From the NCBI GenBank assembly GCA_039208735.1, contig JBCCQY010000147.1, forward strand, positions 1 through 23,470: a DNA stretch of 23,470 nucleotides, written 5' to 3'. Numbering within the stretch: position 1 is the first letter of the stretch; each line of letters opens with the position of its first letter. The notes under the pieces are model-generated. The model was not told where the DNA came from. It saw only the letters and a list, made by a program, of their open reading frames with translations, and did not search any database. Positions 1,570-16,807 of the stretch are shown piece by piece. This stretch comes from Myxococcota bacterium (GTDB taxonomy: Bacteria > Myxococcota_A > UBA796 > GCA-2862545). Made by a program: the position numbers and the translations under genes.

Positions 1570-2268
1570 GCCTTCCAACAGCTCCGAGACGGGGCACTCA
1601 CGAAATTCATCATCATCTGCGAGAGAGGCAGCGGGAAAGGACAGCATGACCAATTCGTCGTCTTGCTGAAGCCGCCAGTTGACCACGTTGGGAAAGGGGT
1701 TTTCGCTTCTCGCTTCAATGTTTCGAAACACCGTTAACGGCAATCCAGGACCGGCGGTTTGTCCGTGGGCGTACGCCCAGTCCTCGCGTGGCGTTTCGAA
1801 CACGGCCGACTTCCCCCGAAAGACCTTTGCTTGATGCGCTCCCACGGACGCACACCACAGAACGTTGCGTTCTCGGTGAACCACCAAGACGGTGAGCGCA
1901 GGCTGAACGTCGCCAAAATCAGCCCAAGTCTGGTCATCCGCCACGAAGCGAGACATGAACGCCGTTGCGCTTTTGATGACGGCACCGCTGAGGCGCAACC
2001 ATGCATGCTCCGTCGATTCGCGCCAGTGCCGCTCCAGTTGGTCCAGGAAGAACCCAGAACCTTCGGGAAAGCAAGTACTGAAGGGGATATCATAGGCATT
2101 CGCCAGCGCAAACAGCTTCGCCGTGCCGTCATCGAACGCTCGAGCAACGGCATTGGATGGCAACTCATCCACCCGCGATGCAAACTGGATGCTGGGGTCC
2201 GCCGAAGGGTTCAAGCCAAGCTCCTTGCCTCCTGGAGCAGGATTGTAGCTGCAAAACGAACCATTCAC
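1519..2268 (-). CDS. Hypothetical protein, probable degenerate PP2C/PPM-fold protein (start uncertain)
   Basis: 249-aa ORF. Motif order LFALANA / LTVLVV..NVLWCASVGAHQAKVFRG / PNVVNWRLQQDDELVMLSFP / GSGAPFVC parallels PP2C LFAVADG / LYVAHVGDSRAYL.R.G / PDI...L..GD.LLLCSDG / GG.DNITV. Comparison made by eye. Confidence 0.55.
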   Translation of the reverse strand: MNGSFCSYNPAPGGKELGLNPSADPSIQFASRVDELPSNAVARAFDDGTAKLFALANAYDIPFSTCFPEGSGFFLDQLERHWRESTEHAWLRLSGAVIKSATAFMSRFVADDQTWADFGDVQPALTVLVVHRERNVLWCASVGAHQAKVFRGKSAVFETPREDWAYAHGQTAGPGLPLTVFRNIEARSENPFPNVVNWRLQQDDELVMLSFPAASLADDDEFRECPVSELLEGSGAPFVCRLRWRAPIA

Positions 2269-2294
2269 TACTATCGGCTGACGCGAGGTCCCGA

Positions 2295-3902
2295 ATGGCC
2301 ACCCCGACGATCCAAAATCCCATTCTCCCTGGGTTCCACCCCGACCCCTGCATTGTGAGGGCGGGCGAAGACTACTACATCGCGACGTCGACGTTCGAAT
2401 GGTTTCCCGGGGTGCGGCTGCACCACAGTCGCGACCTCGTACACTGGCGGCCGATTGGCTACGCCCTGGACCGGACGACCCAGCTCGATCTTCGAGGGAA
2501 TGACCGTTCTGGTGGAGTGTGGGCTCCCGCCCTGTCCTACGCCAAGGGGCGATTCCACCTCGTCTACACCGATGTGAAAGCCTGGGGCTTTGGCTTCGTC
2601 GACAGCCACAACTACCTCGTGACCGCCGACCGCATCGAAGGGCCCTGGTCCGACCCGGTCTACCTCAACAGCAGCGGCTTCGACCCTTCCCTTTTCATCG
2701 ATGAGGACGGGCGCTCGTGGATCGTGAACCTTCGGTGGGACCCGCGCCCGGGCACCGACCGGTTCGGTGGGATTGTGCTGCAGGAATACGAGCCTGACCT
2801 GCAGCGTCTGATCGGCGAGCCGCAGATCATCTTCAAGGGCACCGCACTTGGGGTGACCGAAGGTCCCCACCTCTTTCGACGCAATGGCTGGATCTATTTG
2901 GTCACCGCCGAAGGGGGCACGTCGTGGGACCATGCAATGACGGTGGCCCGTTCACGATCCGTCACCGGTCCCTACGAAGCCGATCCGGAAGGCCCCATCG
3001 TGACGAGCCGGCAGCGACCTGACCTTGCACTGCAAAAGGCGGGTCACGGGATGTTCGTCGAAACGCCAACCCACGAATGGTACGTCACCCACCTCTGTGG
3101 CCGGCCGGTTGGGCCTCATCGCCGCTGCATCCTAGGCCGAGAGACCGCTATTCAAAGGGTCCGATGGACCGATGAGGGCTGGCCTAGATTGGCCACTGGC
3201 GGAAACACACCCCAGGTTGAGGTACCCGGCCCCGACCTGCCCCCCCACCGCTGGCCTGCCTCTCTGGCCCGCGATGACTTCGACACGGCAGCGCTTGGAC
3301 CGGCTTGGCAGACGCTTCGCGTTCCGGCAGACCCAAGCTGGCTCTCCCTCGATGAACGACCCGGTTGGTTACGGCTTCGGGGGCAGGAATCGCCACGCTC
3401 CCGACACCGCCAAAGCCTCGTGGGACAGCGCGTCACCGCGACCCATCAACGCTTCGAGACCTGCCTTTCGTGCCATCCGACGTCGTTCCAACAAATGGCG
3501 GGGCTCCTCGCCTTCTATGACGACGAACAGTTCTACTACGCGATGGTCACGTTCGACCCGAAGGTGGGCCGCTAGCTGGCCCTGCTTGCGTGCCGGAACG
3601 GTGATTACGCCTGGGTCGAAGGCACGCCGTTCCCCTTGCGTACCGACCCGGTCCGGCTCGCCGTTTCGTTCGCAGGCGAACGCTTGCAGTTTTCCTACGC
3701 GACCCACGGCGGGTTTGAACCATTGGGCCCTACGCTCGATGCCACGGTGCTCTCGGACGAAGCCACCACACGGGGACTTGGCTTCACGGGAACCTTCGTG
3801 GCCCTTGGCGCTCACGATGTGTCCGGACAACGAATGGTCGCTGACTTTGACTACATCGCCGTCCAGCCCGCTGTCCGCAAAGGATCGGACGTTCATCGGT
3901 AA
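2295..3902 (+). pseudogene. GH43 beta-xylosidase/alpha-arabinofuranosidase (XynB-like) interrupted by an in-frame TAG at 3573-3575
   Basis: ATG 2295 after GAGGT. IQNPILPGFHPDPCI..YYIATSTFEWFPGV, GGVWAP, GFDPSLF and TEGPHL are GH43 motifs. The same frame resumes after the TAG with C-terminal domain motifs (LQFSY..LDATVLSDE..GFTGTFV..ADFDY) up to TAA 3902. Confidence 0.9.
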
Positions 3903-7187: not shown

Positions 7188-7784
7188 CTAGGTTTTTCGA
7201 AGACCGTCCGCGGTTAGTGTCCAACCGGGAATCGCAAGGTCGTCCTGACTCCGCTTGGCGCGCGTGAGATCCGCTCTGCGCAAGAAGGCTCGATGGAGGT
7301 TGGCCCCTTCAAGGTTGGCCTCAACAAGGTTGGCGGCTTCCAGGTTCGCCTCGACAAGGTTGGCGCCTCTGAGGTTGGCTTGAAGGAAATTCGCCCGCTT
7401 GAGGTTGGCTCCGCGAAGATTGGCTTCGACAAGTTCGGAATAAGGAAGCTCTGCATCGACAAGCCACGCGCCCACGAGTTGGGCATGGGACAGGTTGACT
7501 CGTGCAAGAAGACCATTCTTGAGGTAGAAACCGTTCGCCACGATTCTGCAACCGTGCATGGCTAAAAGGGTGATGACAAACGCGCTCCGCTTTGCCGAAT
7601 CGGGCGTGCGATGATGGCATTGGTCTGCCAATTGCCGGGTCAGGTGGTCGATACGCTCCTGACGCTTGCGCGCTTCGGCCTGTCGTTTTCTCCAGGCGCG
7701 AATCCCATGCACGAAACCGATCGAGGTTGCCACGACGAGCCCCGCGGCGACCAACATCCAAACGGGCTCAACCACGAATTTCAT
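7188..7784 (-). CDS. Pentapeptide-repeat protein with N-terminal transmembrane helix
   Basis: A-N/D-L-x-x repeats (ANLRG ANLKR ANFLQ ANLRG ANLVE ANLEA ANLVE ANLEG ANLHR) after a hydrophobic N-terminus and a basic helical linker. Confidence 0.9.
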   Translation of the reverse strand: MKFVVEPVWMLVAAGLVVATSIGFVHGIRAWRKRQAEARKRQERIDHLTRQLADQCHHRTPDSAKRSAFVITLLAMHGCRIVANGFYLKNGLLARVNLSHAQLVGAWLVDAELPYSELVEANLRGANLKRANFLQANLRGANLVEANLEAANLVEANLEGANLHRAFLRRADLTRAKRSQDDLAIPGWTLTADGLRKT

Positions 7785-8953: not shown

Positions 8954-9379
8954 TTAGTGCGGCTCGTGGGGGTCTGGTCGGGCGGCAAGGCGAAGGGTCA
9001 GGCCCCAGCTTAACGTCACGTCGGTTCGCTCGACGGGAAGGGGAGGCCGAGAGTCGTGGCGCACAGTCAGACTGCCGGTCATCGACAGTGCCTTGGTGAT
9101 GGTGGACGTAAGCACGAAGTAGTTGATGACTTGGATGTCGCCTGGGTCGTCCACTCTTGGCTCGATGTAGGCCGTTTCCGTCAACGTCAGCTCGTCGGGA
9201 ACGAGGACCCATCGGACCTGGGTCGCGAGCACCACACTCAAGAAGTCCACGTTGCCTGTCGACCAGCTACCGGACGTCGCAAACTGGATGCCGACCCCTT
9301 CCTCCGCGGCGGCCGCCGCCAGGTTGTCGGTATTCACCTGGGCCAAGGCCGCACAAGTCCAAACGAGCAGGCTGGTCAC
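8954..9379 (-). CDS. DUF481-like outer-membrane beta-barrel protein, apparently shortened internally
   Basis: GTG 9379 overlaps the upstream stop (GTGA). Signal peptide ..AALA-QVNTD, N-terminal motif STGNVD, C-terminal motifs ETAYIEPRVDD and HDSRPPLPVERTD..GLTL. Only 141 aa. Confidence 0.6.
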   Translation of the reverse strand: MTSLLVWTCAALAQVNTDNLAAAAAEEGVGIQFATSGSWSTGNVDFLSVVLATQVRWVLVPDELTLTETAYIEPRVDDPGDIQVINYFVLTSTITKALSMTGSLTVRHDSRPPLPVERTDVTLSWGLTLRLAARPDPHEPH

Positions 9380-10053
9380 TCCGGACAAGGGCCGCCGGCC
9401 TCAGCCCAGGTTTCGTAGCGCTCCACCAACTCGGGATGCGAAATGGGGGGAGGCTGTCGTCCCGAGTGCCAGCTTGTAATCAACAAGTGGTCGTGCTCGA
9501 TGTGGTGCGCCAGGTCAGCCAAACCGCGGCCCCCGTTGATTTCCGGATCCTTGAGCTGGGCACAGAGTTGTGCGGCCGTGCGATTCTCGAAGGCCATGGC
9601 CTGTGGAGGCATGCTCCACACCGCATCGGCAGGCGGCAACGGCACTTGGCCGTCACCCACACCCTTGGACGCATGGCACGTGCTGCAGTGCGTGCCTTCA
9701 AGCGGACTGAATCGCGTGACGCCGTAGATGTGCAAATGGCTATCGTCGCCCTGCAGTGGCGCAGGGCCATCGGGGTGGCAGTTCATGCAGCGAGGGTGGG
9801 TGGCCACTGCGTAGATGTCGGCAAAGGCGTCCAGCCCTTCCTTTCGAGACCGCGTCACGGGAGGATTCTCGATGGGCGGGGCCTCGGGGCGCAACGAACC
9901 GATGTGTGCGACGAGCCGGTCGATGCGAGCGTCCGACAGGTTGGCGACCTGTGCTGCCATCGACTGGCCAAGCTCCGCCCCTTCGGGACCCCCGCGCACG
10001 CCGTCGCGGTAATGCCGAGGCTGCCGTGTCAGGTAGGCTGGGTGCTGCTGTAA
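9376..10053 (-). pseudogene. 5'-truncated c-type cytochrome: C-terminal half of a class I (c4/c553-like) domain fused to a diheme isoquinoline-oxidoreductase-associated domain
   Basis: The frame extends upstream of 9999 as LQQHPAYLTRQPRHYRDGVRGG..MAAQVANLSDARIDRLVAHIGSL (class I cytochrome c tail whose CxxCH is absent). Then HPRCMNCH and HCSTCH heme motifs and LCAQLKDPEINGGR. Confidence 0.75.
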
Positions 10054-11554
10054 TGTAGAGCCGGCCGTACCATTCGGTTGGCTTGCCGTCTGGCCCGAGT
10101 CGGGCCTGCATGATGGCGGCGTCGGCGGGACGATACGTCGACATGCGCATCTCCGCCTCCCGAGAGAACGTCATCTTGATGGCGCCGCCGACCGCCTTTT
10201 GAACCTCACAGGTCGTGGTGACGTAATTCAAGGCATCGTAAATGAGCGAGTTGCGCCGTCCGAACGCACCCCCCATGGTGCGGGCGTGCAGCGCCACATC
10301 GTCGACGCTTAGGCCCATGGCATCCGCAATTGCAATACGGGCGTTGATCGGCCCTTGAACGCCCGTCGCAACGTGGATCTTGTCGCCCTCGGGCCAAATC
10401 GTGCAGTTCAGCGGCTCCATTGGTGCATGCGCGAGGAACGGTAGGGAGTAGCGGGCTTCGATGACATCGTCACCCGAGAGTGGACCATCCACCTTGCCTT
10501 CGGAGATGATGGTCGACAAGCTGCCCTTCTCGATTGCAGCAAAGCGCCTGTCCATGAGCGCCGGGCCGACCAGAATGCCATGGTCCGGAGTCTCGGTAAT
10601 GACCTGCGCCTTCTTGGCAGCCCACTCCGCACGCCACACCTTGTCCGCCACGATGGCCACGCAGTTGTCGAGCACGAGCACCGCTTCGACGCCTGGCATC
10701 GCTTCTAGCGCGGCCCGGTTCGCCACGCCGGTGACCTTACCCCCCGCGACGGTGGGTGGAGCAACGGACGCATAGCGCATCCCCGGGACCTCGGCATCGA
10801 TGCCATATACCGGCTTACCAAAGATCTTGTCGGGCAAATCGATGCGATTGTATGCAGTGCCGATGTACTTGTACTCGGAGCGGGGCTTGTAGATGGGCTC
10901 TTCGGGCAACGGAAGGGCAGCCACCTCCGAGGCGAGTTCACCGTACGAGACCTTCTTGCCGCTGGCCTCATGAATCACGTGGCTGTTGCGAGTCACTACT
11001 TGGGCGACGGGAACCCCAAGGGCGGCGGCGCCGGTCTCGGAGAGGAGCATCCGGGCACTCGCGGCGGCCCGTCGGAAGCCGAGCCAACCCGTCGATCGGA
11101 TGGACGAGCTGCCGCCGGTGAACGACAAGGAGGTCAGGGTGGCAATGCGGCCAGCCACACTGCGGAGAAAGGACTCGGACCAGCCCTCGCCCACGCCAAG
11201 CTCCTCGAAGAGTCCGTACAGGATGTCGGGATTGGTGAACCCGCTCAACGAAGGGGCAAGCTCGATGGTGGTGGTCTTTGGGTCGGCATCCAGTTCGTCC
11301 AGCACAATCTGCAGAAGGCTGGTTTGAGCGCCCTGGCCCATCTCGGTGTGGGGGGACAGGATGCGGACCCGGCCATCTGGCTCAACCAGGATGAAGGACG
11401 CGACGAGTTCGGCCGCACTCGGTGGGAGACTTCGTCGCTGGGCCGACCGTTGGTCGTAGGTGTTGACATAGACGCCGAGCCCAACGGACCCGAGGAGCAA
11501 GCCACCGCCAGCGATGCCGCCAGCCATGAGGAGCGTACGACGATTGATTTTCAC
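10054..11554 (-). pseudogene. iorB: Xanthine dehydrogenase-family molybdopterin subunit (IorB-like), 3'-truncated; the frame runs on to a stop at 9740
   Basis: GTG 11554 overlaps the iorA stop. Tat-like RRTLL, EMGQG, TGGSSSIR, FLAHAPMEPLNC, MGGAFGRR, YRPA. Similarity stops after about 500 aa (PTEWYGRLY) and the rest of the ORF is out-of-frame cytochrome DNA. Confidence 0.85.
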
Positions 11555-12003: not shown

Positions 12004-12314
12004 GATCCCTCCCCGGCGGGTTCGGTGTCCGCGCGGGTCTCCAATCCCCTCCGCGCGAGAGTGAAAATGGCGTAGCTGGACACAACGCTGGCGCGACAGA
12101 ACAGTCACGTGCGAGGAGCCTCGTCGGCAACAAACACCAATTGGACATTCACAGGCTCAAGCCGTGGGCTCCACCCGTCGCGACAAGAACCCCTCGTCCT
12201 CACGTTGCCGCAGACAACGCGTCCAACGAGCCATCCGTACGCAGGCGGGGCCAGATTGGACCATCCTACGGCCTGCAACCCCTGGCCAAGGTCTTAAGAG
12301 CGCGGCTGAACTCG

Positions 12315-13160
12315 TTAAGAGCCCATTCGCGCCGGGGGCGTTCGCTGCTTCCGGAATCGTCCTGGGGATTGCCCCAATACCCTTTTGAACGCGCGCGAAA
12401 AGGCGTATTGGCTCGTATAGCCAACGTCCTGGGCGATGGACTCTAAGGAGCGGTGTGGGTCGGACACCAAAAGCCGCCCGGCCAGCGACATCCGCCATCG
12501 GCGAACGTAGGCCATGGGGCTTTCTCCCACACACTCCGTGAATCGCCGCGCAAAGAGGGACCGCGAAACCCCCGTCACCTTGGCCAGACGGTCCAGAGTC
12601 CAATTCGTATCGGGCGATCCGTGGATCGCTTCGAGCGCTAGCCCAGCAAGCGCGTCATCGAGACCACGAAGCCAGGAACTGCCGTGGCGTGCCTGTGTCG
12701 TCCCACGGAGGATGGCGACGAGGAGCGCATCGAGCAGACCAGCCCGCATCGGCTCGAAACCAGCCTCTGGCGTCCGCAGCTCCGACACGATGAGCGAGGT
12801 CAAGGGGCGAAGCGCCGAAACCCGTGCCACCGCTTCAGCTTCCAGGTGGATGATATCGGGTTCGCCTGCCCACAAGCTCGTGATGGGGCACCTCGAGCCC
12901 CCAATGACCCCCACGAGCAGGGTGGTTGAATCGGAGGCATCGATTTGGTGGGCCGCGCCGCGAACCAGCAATGCGACCTCGCCCGAGCCAAGGTCGAACC
13001 GCCTCTCTCCGACGCGAAGGTGGACAAAACCATCCACGACCAGCGTGAATACGACGCCCGCGACCGCCTCGCACTGCAGCGTGACCGGACCGTCGACGAG
13101 CTTCAATTCGGATGTCCAAGGGCGGGTCACCGAAATCCAGTCGGTCATCGGGCTGTTCAT
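12315..13160 (-). CDS. AraC-family transcriptional regulator (cupin N-domain plus HTH)
   Basis: GGAG precedes ATG 13160. WLRGLDD..ALEAIH..WTLDRLAKVTGVSRSLFARRF..VGESPMAYVRRWRM..IAQDVGYTSQYAFSRAFKR. Divergent from the NAD(P)H-binding gene. Confidence 0.93.
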   Translation of the reverse strand: MNSPMTDWISVTRPWTSELKLVDGPVTLQCEAVAGVVFTLVVDGFVHLRVGERRFDLGSGEVALLVRGAAHQIDASDSTTLLVGVIGGSRCPITSLWAGEPDIIHLEAEAVARVSALRPLTSLIVSELRTPEAGFEPMRAGLLDALLVAILRGTTQARHGSSWLRGLDDALAGLALEAIHGSPDTNWTLDRLAKVTGVSRSLFARRFTECVGESPMAYVRRWRMSLAGRLLVSDPHRSLESIAQDVGYTSQYAFSRAFKRVLGQSPGRFRKQRTPPARMGS

Positions 13161-13261
13161 GGCGCTCCGTGGAAGAACGGACAAAAATAATAGCAGATGT
13201 GACATGGAGCGTCCTTGCTCGCCACCCTAGGTTTCGATCGAAGCAAGACCATGGAGTCAGG

Positions 13262-13999
13262 ATGGAAGTGTCGAAACAGGACTCTGCGCGTCAGACGCTG
13301 GTCGTCTTTGGCGCCACAGGGACCACAGGCTCCCACGTCCTTCGGCAGGCCCTGGACGGAGGGATTTCGGTTCGCGCAGCGGTTCGGTCACCAAACAAGC
13401 TCCCCCCGAACCTCGTGGCTGATCAGCCGCAAGCGAAGCTTGGGCGAAATCAGAACAGCAGCAAGCAGAGCTTGCGCGAGTCTGATCGGCTCGAAGTCGC
13501 CACGGTGGACGTCACCGACACAAATGCCGTGGCACGGGCCATCCAAGGGGCCACGATGGTGTTCGCGGCTTTAGGCTACACGGGAGATCCCGGTCGCCCG
13601 GTGCTCCTCCCCTTCGTGCAAGCGGTAGTGCAAGCGATGCGCGAACACGGGGCTCGGCGGTTCGTTTATCAGGCGTCGGCCTTTAACTCAGAGCCCGGCC
13701 AGTCGAACCCGGTCCACATTCGCTATCTGCTTCGCCCCCTCGTGGGATCCATCGTCGGCGCACATCCCATCTGGAACGAGCATGACGCCGTCATTCGCTT
13801 CCTCGTTGAGGAGGTCAGCGACCTCGAGTGGACGGTCACCCGCCCAGGGATGTTGAGCGACGGACAAAGCAAGGGCGTGCTCGCGGTTCGAGCGACACCT
13901 GGTGGGGGTGTGACCAATCGAGATCTAGCCACCTTCTCCCTAAATGCGGTTCGAACAGGCGACCACGCACGGAGCTGCCCTTACCTCGGCTACCCCTGA
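13262..13999 (+). CDS. NAD(P)H-binding protein (atypical SDR, flavin reductase/BVR-B-like) carrying a 21-aa in-frame insertion
   Basis: GGAG at 13253, ATG 13262. LVVFGATGTTG Rossmann motif, VRSPNKL, DVTD..AV..AI.G, SDLEWTVTRPG, V...DLA.F. Confidence 0.92.
   Translation: MEVSKQDSARQTLVVFGATGTTGSHVLRQALDGGISVRAAVRSPNKLPPNLVADQPQAKLGRNQNSSKQSLRESDRLEVATVDVTDTNAVARAIQGATMVFAALGYTGDPGRPVLLPFVQAVVQAMREHGARRFVYQASAFNSEPGQSNPVHIRYLLRPLVGSIVGAHPIWNEHDAVIRFLVEEVSDLEWTVTRPGMLSDGQSKGVLAVRATPGGGVTNRDLATFSLNAVRTGDHARSCPYLGYP
13420..13488 (+). mobile_element. 63-bp double-hairpin element, copy A (intragenic, in frame), bounded by duplicated (C)TGATC
   Basis: CTGATC at 13419-13424 and again at 13482-13487 (63-bp period). 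63/69 identical to the reverse complement of 13997-14065. Confidence 0.8.
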
Positions 14000-14065
14000 T
14001 CACCCTCGCGCAAGCTTTGCTTGCTGCTGTTCTGATTTCGCGCAAGCTTCGCTTGCCGCTGATCA
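13997..14065 (-). mobile_element. 63-bp double-hairpin element, copy B (inverted, at the stop codon), bounded by duplicated TGATCA
   Basis: TGATCA at 13997-14002 and 14060-14065. The reverse complement reads TGATCA GCGGCAAGC-GAA-GCTTGCGCGA AATCAGAACA GCAGCAAGC-AAA-GCTTGCGCGA GGG TGATCA. Confidence 0.8.
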
Positions 14066-14150
14066 ACGCCATCCGATCAACCATGCCGTAAAGCGCAAGG
14101 GGGGGACGTTTGGCGGGATTCTCTATCGGTGGTCGGGTCGACTTGTTCGC

Positions 14151-16807
14151 TCAAGGGTCGACGTCGACGACCTCGAAGGCCGCGGGTCTCGTGGTGGAGA
14201 AGGGAGCGAAGACCACCATCGTCGGCGTCCCGTCCGTGTCGAGGAACGTTCCACTGCGGGCCGACTCGAGTACCGTCCCGTCGACGAGCAGCGACGCACG
14301 TGGGCCCCCCGACCATCTCCGCAGCACGAAGCACGGATGGTGAATGGGCGTCTCGTCGCTGCCCTCGAGTTCGAAGGACACGCCGGCCTCGGTGAGTACG
14401 AAGTCGTAGTCCCGCTGTCCGCTGTCGTAGCCTTCACTGGTCGCCCCCACCACGTTCACCGGCTCGGGGGCCGACCGCCAGGCATCGGCGAGGGGCACGA
14501 TGTCGCGAATGTCCTGGCTCGTGGTGCTCCGCTGGTTGGAGAACCCGTACAGCACGGACCTTCCGCCCCCCGCGGCCAGGGCAAAGTGGTTGACCCGCCC
14601 GTCCCCCTCGATGGCAAACCGACCGTCGGTCACCACCCGGCTGATGGGCCAGTGGTTCCATGGACCGGCGAAGGCATCCGAGGTGAATGGAGACTGTTCC
14701 TCGGCCCCCCACGGCCCCGTTCCTCCGAGCTCGAACACCTGGAAGGGCTTGTACTCGGATCGGACGTTGGCCATGAGCAGGGGCCCCTCACCGACCGGAA
14801 CCCCGTCGTCGCCCGTCCAGGTGAGCTCGATCACCTCACCGAATTCGTCGACGATGGAAGCGGCTTGCTCGTTGACGATGTCTCGCGGGGCGAAGCCTGG
14901 CGACGACAGCATTTGAAAGTCGCTCGATACGCCGTCCTCGCCCTCTGTCTCCTCCCAGTAAGTGGCGGTCCGAACGAGCGTGCCGTCGGGGTAGATGGTG
15001 TGGTACTCGTCGACGAAGTCGTTACCCGTGCACATCTCGAAGAACAGATCCGCCGTGGTGTAGCGCCAGTGGACGACCACGCGCGCATCGGTGTTCTCCA
15101 AAACGCGAACGTGGGTGAACCGGGCCTCCTTGTCCGACATGTGCTCACCGAGCGAGGGGTCCTCGGGTCCAGGAGGCGCCCGGTCTCCGCAGAAGATCTC
15201 GACGCTCTGGTCCGACATCCAGTGGTTGCGCTCGGTCACCATGTTGACGCCGTGGGAGGTCCCCCGCCAGTAGACGTAGCTCGTGGGCAGGTCGTCGAAC
15301 TTGACCACCACGTCCTCAACCCGGGAAGCGCGCCACTGGTTGTCCCACAAGTCGTGGTAAGTGAGCCGCTCGTGAATCGCACCGAATCGGTCCGCGACCC
15401 CAGGCTGCCCCGGGAGGACCCGCGCCTGGAGGTCAGGCGACCCCGTGACCCGAACCCCGGGGTCGAACGCATCGTGCACCGCGCGCACGTCGGGCTCGCT
15501 CAGCTTGTAGTCGTACAGCCGAACCTCGTCGACGAGGCCTTCGAGGCCGAGTCGAGACGGGTAGGTGTGAGAAGGCCGAACCGGCCCAGTCGGTAACACT
15601 GGGTCGGTGTTCAGCCCCATGACCAGCGGCGTGGCCGGCGTGACGATGGGAGCGGTGGCCAGCGTGGAGGCGACCGGCTCACCATCGACGTACAGTTCCA
15701 GGGAACCCTCACCGTAGGCCCCCACCAGGTGCGCCCACCGATAGAGCGTAAGACCACGAGGGGCGGTGACCACCGCGTCGCCGACCCGGAAGCGTGGCCG
15801 CCCCCGTTCATCGATCCCAAGCGCGTAGCCGTCATCCCCCGAGGTGTGCTCGACGAGGGGAGCCTCCGCAAAGGGGAACGCCCCGAGGGCGACCCAAGCA
15901 TCCACCGTCAGCTCATCGTCGAGGGTCGGCGCGTCGGCCCCCGCGACGCGGACCTCGGAGAAGTAGCCGTCGAACCCGAGCGCGGTCCCCGACACGCCGG
16001 ACTTCCAGAGGCTCTTGTGGCCGAGGATCGCTCCGTCGACCCCCTCAATCACGTCGTCCACCACATTCCCGAGCTGTTCGTCGAAGCGCCACCACCGAAC
16101 CGGGCCCCGCGCATCGGCCAGGACCGTGGGGTTCCCTAAGATGGGGCTCGGTGGGGTCAGGGTACCCAAGGTCGTCTCGACGTCGACGATACCGTCGGGG
16201 TGAGGCGGAACGTCTGGGTGATCGTGTTGCCGGGGTCGAGCCACGCTTCGATCGTCGCCGTGCCGGCATCGTGCTCGCGGCGCACCGACCCCGTGTCGTT
16301 GATGGTGTAGACCTCGTGGACCACATCGGTGGGCGAAAGCCGGTCGAGGTCCGGGAAATAGCGCCAGTGAACCACGATCTGTCGCGGCCCGGACTCCACG
16401 ATGCGCGCGTAACTGTAGCGATTGGTCCGATCAAAGTTGGCCTCGGCTGGACCATCCCCCGCGATGGTCGCGAGGTGCTCCACGGGGTATCGGATTCCGT
16501 CGACGACCCACACGGGACGAAAACTCGTCGCACGCGAGAACACGAGACTCGACCCTTCTCCGAACGCGACGACCACATCGGCGTAGTCGCCCGATACCTG
16601 CCTGGGTTCGTCCTCGAAGCTGGTTCGTGTGTAGAAGGCACCGAAATCGGTGTCTTCGGGATTCGGCTCGTCTGTCTCGAGTGGAGGGGTCACGTCGACG
16701 AGTCTAGGGTCGTCGCCTACGCAACCGAATCCGACGAGCGCGAGCAGACCGAGCCATGGGACACCGAGCCGCCAGCGCCGAGAGGGGTTGGACGCGACTT
16801 GCTGCAC
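14151..16807 (-). pseudogene. LamG (concanavalin A-like) domain lipoprotein of about 885 aa, split by a 1-nt frameshift at the G4 run 16197-16200
   Basis: GGAGG then GTG 16807; lipobox LVGFG-C. ORF 16157-16807 (..TQTFRLTP) joins ORF 14151-16244 (PDGIVDVE..) if one C is added to ACCCCGAC. LamG motifs WWRFDE, ALGFDG, WAHLVGAY..LYVDG, GLVDEVRLYDYKLS. Confidence 0.85.

Follow-up and report, generated by a model that had tools for sequence, protein, structure and literature searches.

The stretch of DNA analyzed here (the window, 23,470 bp) carries two nearly identical 63-bp hairpin sequences in opposite orientation, one inside a gene and the other on the stop codon of that gene, which raises the question of what these sequences are and how they came to lie there. 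The window is contig C147 of its source genome (G000; 9.4 Mb, 64% G+C, 93% complete), and the homologues of the host gene are assigned to Myxococcota/Myxococcales by database naming. The sole sequencing run carrying the window stretch is a marine metagenome, perhaps its source, and RNA runs were absent from the listed matches.

Copy 1, a 63-bp module that we call A2 (13420..13488, plus strand), lies in frame within a gene for an NAD(P)-binding Rossmann protein (PF13460; 13262..13999, plus strand, with the start uncertain between 13250 and 13262) and adds a hydrophilic loop. Its left joint, TGATCA (13420..13425), is read out of frame and so introduces no stop. It is followed on the plus strand by hairpin H1, with a 6-bp stem and a GAA triloop (13429..13443), by a decayed internal joint, AAATCA (13447..13452), and by hairpin H2 (13449..13486), in which the internal joint pairs with the right joint, TGATCG (13483..13488), to close the stem; the last base of the right joint likely comes from the target. 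Copy 2 is the same module inverted (13997..14065, minus strand) and sits flush with the host-gene stop codon: the TGA (13997-13999) of its inner joint (13997..14002) is the natural stop of the host gene, and its outer joint is TGATCA (14060..14065). The convergent neighbor, encoding a LamG-domain protein (14151..16244, minus strand), has its stop 86 bp past copy 2. Alignment confirmed what the preliminary description had noticed, namely, two inverted copies identical at 63 of 69 positions, each with the TGATC core at both ends and a 63-bp period, perfect in copy 2 and ending in TGATCG in copy 1. The chance of such a pair in a 23-kb window is about 5e-21, and each of the four strands of the copies has a better fold than 199 out of 200 shuffled versions (z of -2.9 to -3.2). 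As it had also noted, no transposase was recognized among the open reading frames (ORFs) of the window, with a Pfam run on the three flanking genes, and the Rfam covariance models gave no match at E values up to 1 over 13300-14200.

By comparing the host gene with its relatives, we found that the host protein has 245 residues versus 213 to 238 in most homologues. The empty site previously proposed for copy 1 turned out to be one codon short relative to 16 of 16 homologous proteins; the net gap is 20 residues rather than 21, so one codon was lost at or after insertion. The orthologue in congener G002 (72% DNA identity) ends at the same stop codon, within TGACCA, and lacks both copies. Contigs of the possible source run spanning 12300-13458, 13429-14034 and 14037-15143 at a depth of about 8 independently bridge both copies (summed depth over copies 1 and 2, 97 and 382), and since separate contigs cover them, the copies are not an assembly artifact; no junction skipping a copy was seen in contigs of the same run, which carries no weight either way. 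Elsewhere in the window, a pentapeptide-repeat gene (7188-7784) contains 15-bp tandem repeats at 7282-7439, a molybdopterin oxidoreductase-like large subunit gene (9376-11554, minus strand) seems short and enters the next ORF, possibly by frameshift or truncation, and a glycoside hydrolase 43-like gene (2157-3902) is apparently split into two ORFs near 3575-3636.

The two copies belong to a large family. A BLAST search of G000 with the 63-bp module returned 26 matches of at least 40 nt, of which three were dropped (a chance hit, an overlapping duplicate and a truncated copy), leaving 23 near-full copies on 19 contigs. Their flanks exposed further bodies between TGATCA joints: A1 (31 bp), E (32 bp), C (34 bp), B (75 to 77 bp) and D (106 bp), so that module lengths across the family run from 27 to 106 bp. 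The five unrelated bodies have only the TGATCA joint in common, and they are chained in either orientation. An automated count in G000, requiring both joints within two mismatches, found 72 modules, distributed over 53 arrays (36 single, 15 pairs and 2 triples), with 17 of the 53 compound and several of mixed orientation; the counts per type are approximate because 77-bp B variants contributed their 3' half to some of the E calls. Contrary to the first reading of the 63-mer as the basic unit, it consists of two fused hairpin modules, 27 plus 36 bp, across the decayed internal joint, as indicated by G002, where this joint is intact or almost so in some copies and the 27-bp unit, H1, is found alone.

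Some other repeats were noted in G000. Module-B-related units of 63 to 87 bp form tandem arrays, at which contigs often break, on C3, C11, C20, C42, C79, C101, C107, C127, C152, C169, C231 and C236; several are flush on TAA or TGA stops, and in them a compensatory CCAG/CTGG foot replaces TCAG/CTGA. At C169:11133-11147, two TGATCA hexamers only 9 bp apart enclose the final bases of module A beside a full A2 copy, an arrangement that may be a deletion scar. A 36-nt repeat present genome-wide in about 28 to 31 copies is probably a CRISPR repeat.

Every unit of the family is a stem-loop with the feet TCAG and CTGA or decayed versions of them, and the modules carry no U-tract. H2 is the best-conserved part of the module between G000 and G002. 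In an alignment of copies from both genomes, both sides had changed in 4 of 16 named pairs, 95.8% of 336 cells were paired versus 21 to 29% in slid controls, and the covariation score was reached by none of 500 shuffles, although these 21 hand-picked copies represent two lineages and hence few independent events. Between the two genomes, the fold is kept while the sequence drifts. The loop variants on one strand are GAA, GCA, GTA, GGA and AAA, and GNA triloops are a signature of DNA mini-hairpins. From such triloops on one strand and the compensatory stems, we infer that the donor is probably folded single-stranded DNA.

The main habitat of the family, missed by the preliminary description, is stop codons and convergent gene junctions. 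With gene calls made in this analysis, the 53 two-joint loci of G000 comprised 24 on a stop codon (6 at both ends), 15 intergenic, 8 overlapping an ORF end and 6 in a gene, and in G002, 24 of 39 loci were on a stop, 9 of them with both stops (the 39 include 2 chance hits of the motif). The gene pairs around arrays are often convergent, with element ends at distance zero from TGA stops. Unoccupied TGATCA sites in G000 number 60 at stops, 120 in other noncoding DNA and 1,453 in coding DNA; the odds ratio for occupation of stop sites is 97 versus coding sites and 2.1 (P of 0.03) versus other noncoding ones. To judge by orthologues, these stops are native: of 8 checked genes whose stop bears an element, 7 have counterparts in G001 or G002 that end there or a few codons off, with only one pair still adjacent in the counterpart genome, and orthologues of pdxA, htpX, glgX, cysK and others end at the same place or a few codons off, some with TAG. 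The junction of the polyA-polymerase gene and its convergent partner supplies an empty site: in congener G001 (L108), the two genes abut in a single TGATCA, while in G000 a 33-bp module lies between the TGA and the TCA, so one hexamer is present when empty and two when filled. This is the one clean empty site at the DNA level; a search in G000 for empty sites of G002 elements found no conserved flank pair.

The joints themselves locate the exchange. After 36 left and 16 right G000 rows that were internal halves or variant families had been removed by hand, mismatches to the hexamer by position were 7, 0, 1, 3, 2 and 3 for 49 left outer ends and 1, 1, 1, 1, 4 and 11 for 58 right outer ends, while 28 of 30 module-module joints were perfect TGATCA; the bodies diverged by 1 to 7%. 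Because the outer mismatches concentrate on the outermost base and the inner joints are nearly all perfect, the exchange would fall within GATC; a blunt, a staggered or a 4-bp GATC-duplicating reaction gives the same sequence, and exchange in a shared core mimics a target duplication. The outer T and A are a true preference, being present at 81 to 86% of ends versus a 17% background and in 9 of 12 cases even for in-gene copies. TCA follows TGA stops 100 times against 83 expected, which does not separate the models. In G000 the observed/expected ratio is 1.08 for TGATCA, 0.85 for GATC and 0.89 for CGATCG. A link to GATC methylation, as once proposed, finds no support, since a Dam-family gene occurs in all five genomes of the genus, with or without the element, and the fact that neither GATC nor TGATCA is over-represented further counts against it. 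GAGCTC is strongly avoided in G000 (observed/expected ratio of 0.34), which suggests a restriction system.

The position of copy 1 had suggested that the element preserves the reading frame by its nature, which is not borne out by the sister modules of 31, 32 to 34, 75 to 77 and 106 bp or by the 61- to 62-bp version in G002. The 63-mer can be read without a stop in all four possible ways, as can 12% of shuffles. Five arrays lie clearly in genes (four of 63 bp and one of 138 bp), and the sixth locus scored as inside lies close to an uncertain start. The five share one orientation and phase; this phase is the rarer one (286 of 1,328 coding sites), and the in-gene peptide alone is strongly hydrophilic (hydropathy of -1.9 versus -0.2, 0.1 and 1.1). 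The probability of this concordance is 1e-5 for that class and about 0.02 for any one class. In an AAA_24 protein, the insertion accounts for exactly 21 extra residues relative to homologues of 79 to 81% identity; in a third host, the site falls in a variable loop and the comparison is uninformative, and for two further hosts no homologues were found. Given the shared phase, orientation and hydrophilic reading, frame keeping looks like a filter on in-gene survival rather than a design of the element.

The family appears to be restricted to one genus, judging from genome scans. Among 41 relatives, matches were found only in G002 (11 hits, 75 to 76% identity), a congener that is 82% complete and holds about 37 loci of the diverged 61- to 62-bp version, whose stems have changed in a compensatory way. 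Counts of a 12-letter end motif were 25 for G000, 47 for G002 and no more than 3 for any of 47 other family genomes, and a pattern scan of the phylum gave 16 in G000 and at most 3 in each of the other 400 genomes, a sample that did not include G002. An all-species genome scan returned 15 stretches, 14 from one Myxococcales MAG and 1 chance hit; that MAG has the element type of G002 and is excluded as independent evidence. When 154 genomes were scanned for TGATCAG..CTGATCA, only G000 (11) and G458 (10) stood out, and 433 kb of G458 (about 7%) held coding coincidences only. Viral contigs gave no match, a metagenome scan with the module-B end gave none, and one with the module-A end gave 30 hits, none with the element anatomy. 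Module-B-like repeats are present in G001 and G003. A genome of another genus has, at G429:C198:39-98, a 60-bp hairpin that is almost perfect and closes with TGATCA; it may represent an independent module type.

The preliminary description of a dispersed, non-autonomous, site-specific element at TGATC(A) is thus supported by copy number and empty sites; BLAST, orthologue and Rfam checks showed more than two copies, an empty site and no described family. The literature searched, with partial coverage of subscription papers, does not describe a TGATCA-jointed myxobacterial repeat, and the supplementary table of PMC6006769 has no matching entry for TGATCA/CTGATC. We conclude that the family is real and new and that it is a variant of the small non-autonomous hairpin repeats, akin to SDR5, MIRU and REP, with two unusual traits, the modular palindromic joint and stop-stop targeting.

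The target of MIRU repeats is DTGA, and their direct repeats, empty and filled sites and gene-overlapping ends are all found in our family. According to passages of PMC3184786, MIRUs are also 40 to 100 bp long, occur in 40 to 50 copies, form G+C-rich hairpins with short direct repeats at the ends, show empty and filled sites and ends overlapping neighboring genes, and have no known mobilizer; in contrast, they occupy co-oriented operon junctions and carry small ORFs, whereas our elements occupy stop-stop junctions in both orientations and carry none. SDR5, as excerpted from PMC4390886 and PMC13756078, is likewise very small and structured and inserts between G and ATC in a GATC palindrome, and no enzyme is known for either; SDR5, however, is 21 nt long and confined to HIP1 in HIP1-rich genomes, whereas our 27- to 106-bp modules use TGATCA, which is not over-represented. 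As for REP, REPIN and BIME repeats, portions of PMC3733652, PMC6006769 and PMC3116915 describe 20- to 65-nt hairpins, dimers and mosaics, and insertion into or beside copies, and portions of the first two describe 3' gene ends and convergent junctions, ends that supply a stop codon, genus-level patchiness and occasional in-frame copies of 20 to 30 residues. Our family shows the G+C-rich hairpin in many dispersed copies, the mostly extragenic location at 3' ends and convergent junctions, and the mosaics. It differs from REPs in lacking a GTAG/CGTC or CnGA class-3 body tag, in its palindromic hexamer at both module ends, in having several unrelated bodies on one joint, in its zero distance to TGA stops on both sides, and in the absence of a flanked RAYT in the carrying genomes. 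Rickettsia palindromic elements, in the part of PMC3733652 that treats them, are in-gene hairpins adding 20 to 30 residues in frame; they are CGTC-tagged or long (RPE-1), whereas our in-gene copies are a small filtered minority.

Copies beside an HUH/RAYT transposase, a recombinase or a reverse transcriptase (RT), which the preliminary description had looked to as a sign of the mobilizer, were not found: no mobile gene flanks any G000 locus or inspected G002 locus. In G000 (93% complete) no Y1 transposase (PF01797, IS200 type), no IS91 and no integron integrase was found, RAYT (NF047646) was found in neither G000 nor G002 (93% and 82% complete), a RAYT-like protein of congener G003 used as the query matched nothing in either genome, and a 28-sequence profile run over six frames of G000 found no HUH gene. 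Several candidates were rejected: 8 tyrosine recombinase hits in G000 are of phage type; RT and Dam are present in all five congeners, element or not; four IS110 loci have neither TGATCA-joint ends nor module sequence; an IS630-like element sits in CTAG without TGATCA-joint ends; and an apparent match by an IS91-like fragment of G002 lies inside the coding region of that fragment. The IS630-like element, 1.5 kb long with a small passenger ORF (in G000, C18:48819-50324, C27:25472-26977, C174:19365-19640), carries a TGATCA about 45 bp inside one end, and one copy lies 110 bp from an A2 module.

A weak lead to the enzyme is the RAYT-like gene of G003 (L178:4930-5691, minus strand), which has HUH and catalytic Y motifs and matches NF047646 at an E value of 1e-8, below the cutoff. 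Located 150 to 270 bp upstream of it is a long hairpin with 31-bp subunits whose arms correspond to both H2 arms, a match found post hoc at BLAST E values of 0.05 to 0.3, with the second arm partly forced by complementarity. All occurrences of the two-arm H2 motif in G000 fall in element copies, 20 in number, and those in G003 mark 3 members of a single repeat family; H2-like arms occur at 1 of 30 RAYT-like loci in the family, the sole same-genus one. The G003 hairpins are about 200 bp long and do not end in TGATCA; 51-bp tandem repeats in G003 resemble module B (78% over 32 nt, with weak E values). The module sequences in the 21-copy alignment contain no GTAG or CGTC guide tag, and guide pairing by the IS200/IS605 rules, judged by eye, proved too lax to be of use. 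RAYT-like HUH genes occur in 17 of 49 family genomes (L182-L211; L288, L291), flanked by locus-specific long inverted repeats, and most of the RAYT-like copies, together with the IS91-like genes of G001 and G002, have a GTGACGGACGTC-like palindrome shortly upstream. A second lead in G003 is locus L176 (C576, 780-3682), where genes for a tyrosine recombinase and an IS91-family transposase form a pair between complementary heptamers, GTT... and ...AAC, with an attC-like site ahead of it and module-B-related 51-bp tandem hairpin repeats on both flanks; it looks like an IS91/recombinase unit borne as an integron-type cassette. G002 has a frameshifted integron integrase gene with no obvious cassette array (L071, C40, 1200-2180).

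Starting from the demonstrated dispersal, chaining in two orientations, conservation of structure over sequence, hexamer preference, stop-codon habitat and at least one empty site, we place single-strand exchange by an HUH enzyme first and give it about an even chance of being correct. On this reading, the units would be REP/BIME-like gene-less cassettes that an HUH (RAYT-like) tyrosine transposase mobilizes in trans in single-stranded form, and they would insert into the palindrome TGATCA and into the ends of other cassettes. The predicted enzyme, encoded elsewhere, would cut and rejoin strands within the hexamer; because donor ends and target would share the core, strand exchange inside it would regenerate the hexamer on each side and resemble a target duplication. 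Either orientation would result because the core is palindromic, and mosaics would arise from later insertions because every module end is a perfect site. Insertion would be blind to frame, with purifying selection clearing most hits in genes; hits that leave TGA stops intact would be kept, and in-gene hits would persist only if their length is a multiple of three and the encoded peptide is hydrophilic.

Second place goes to integron-type recombination, which we regard as unlikely, although it is the strongest competitor. It takes the units as minimal gene-less integron-type cassettes moved by an IntI-like tyrosine recombinase at TG/AT sites, with H2 as an attC-like site and GAT in place of GTT. 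In the portion of bioRxiv 10.1101/2022.09.11.507474 that deals with these targets, the insertion sites are GWT for IntI1 and TGWT for IntI2, with the cut after G, and attG integron cassettes share with our modules a folded single-stranded donor, insertion at GWT/TGWT without true duplication, and chaining through a core. TG/ATCA fits such targets, though not specifically, right-end positions 1 and 2 are nearly invariant, and Nostoc SDR5 shares the G/ATC register in the excerpted PMC4390886; GWT, however, suffices for IntI, whereas our elements have a stricter six-base target on both sides, as their outer T and A indicate. The AAC/GTT triplet is absent, with ATC/GAT instead, and there is no cargo gene. 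By the usual attC spacing rule, H2 of G000 has attC-like spacing and one bulged base, but the bulge is not kept in G002, modules B to E have no L-box, and a simple scan gave 7 weak hits and no canonical attC array. The broken intI of G002 and the G003 module-B-related repeats, which end in GTT, follow the attC-like site and flank the tyrosine recombinase and IS91 pair, speak for this reading, but no module lies near the G002 intI, and G000 has no integron integrase. We hold it similarly unlikely that one enzyme, integron-like or of a new HUH class, treats any TGATCA-closed hairpin as a cassette; gene-less units from 27 bp would then be excised and inserted at the TG/ATCA core, whose palindrome would place them where two TGA stops abut.

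It is rather improbable that no dedicated enzyme is involved and that host processes (template switching, GATC nick repair, gene conversion, or RNA with the resident RT) spread hairpins that are kept as terminators or mRNA 3' stabilizers between convergent genes. Such an origin would suit the failure to find a mobilizer, the presence in the genome of RT genes and a Dam-family methylase, the long tandem arrays built of related units, and the preference for stop sites over other noncoding TGATCA (the odds ratio of 2.1 given above). Congeners without the element, however, have RT and Dam equally, the modules have no U-tract, and the precise hexamer joints in 28 of 30 mosaics, together with the five bodies, favor a site-specific reaction. 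Slightly less likely still is the view that a DDE or IS110-type transposase, recognizing TGATCA and duplicating GATC, moves the modules as very short MITEs. Like MITEs (Correia, RUP, Nezha), they are non-autonomous, small, hairpin forming and found by gene ends, but MITEs have long terminal inverted repeats shared with a cognate IS, in the relevant passages of PMC3184786, and ours do not. In favor of this view, GATC hardly varies at either end, the termini of modules C and E are 10-bp inverted repeats that take in the hexamer, and G000 has IS110-family genes and IS630-like elements; the inverted end of the 63-bp module, however, extends only 1 to 2 bp past the hexamer, the joint is all that five unrelated bodies have in common, and the IS110 loci and IS630-like element lack TGATCA-joint ends or module sequence. 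Finally, a local inverted duplication or assembly artifact, suggested by the 510-bp spacing of the two window copies, is ruled out by the roughly 23 copies on 19 contigs, the diverged family in a second genome, the bridging contigs and the orthologues without the copies, and is almost certainly wrong.

How repeats of less than 100 bp move is an open question for SDR5, MIRU and CGTC REPs, and the family described here offers a clean test case, with a six-base core, five bodies, two genomes, an empty site and two candidate enzymes. If the one-enzyme reading is true, a single reaction at G/ATC would explain Nostoc SDR5 and perhaps the spread of MIRU. A hairpin at distance zero from a stop may alter termination or translation, an effect described for E. 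coli REPs that lie within 15 nt of a stop codon, as summarized in a passage of PMC5082802 citing Liang et al. 2015. Selection would sort the insertions at three levels, namely, whether the stop is kept, whether the length is a multiple of three and whether the peptide is hydrophilic, and the filtered in-gene copies may therefore be a visible route to new protein loops.
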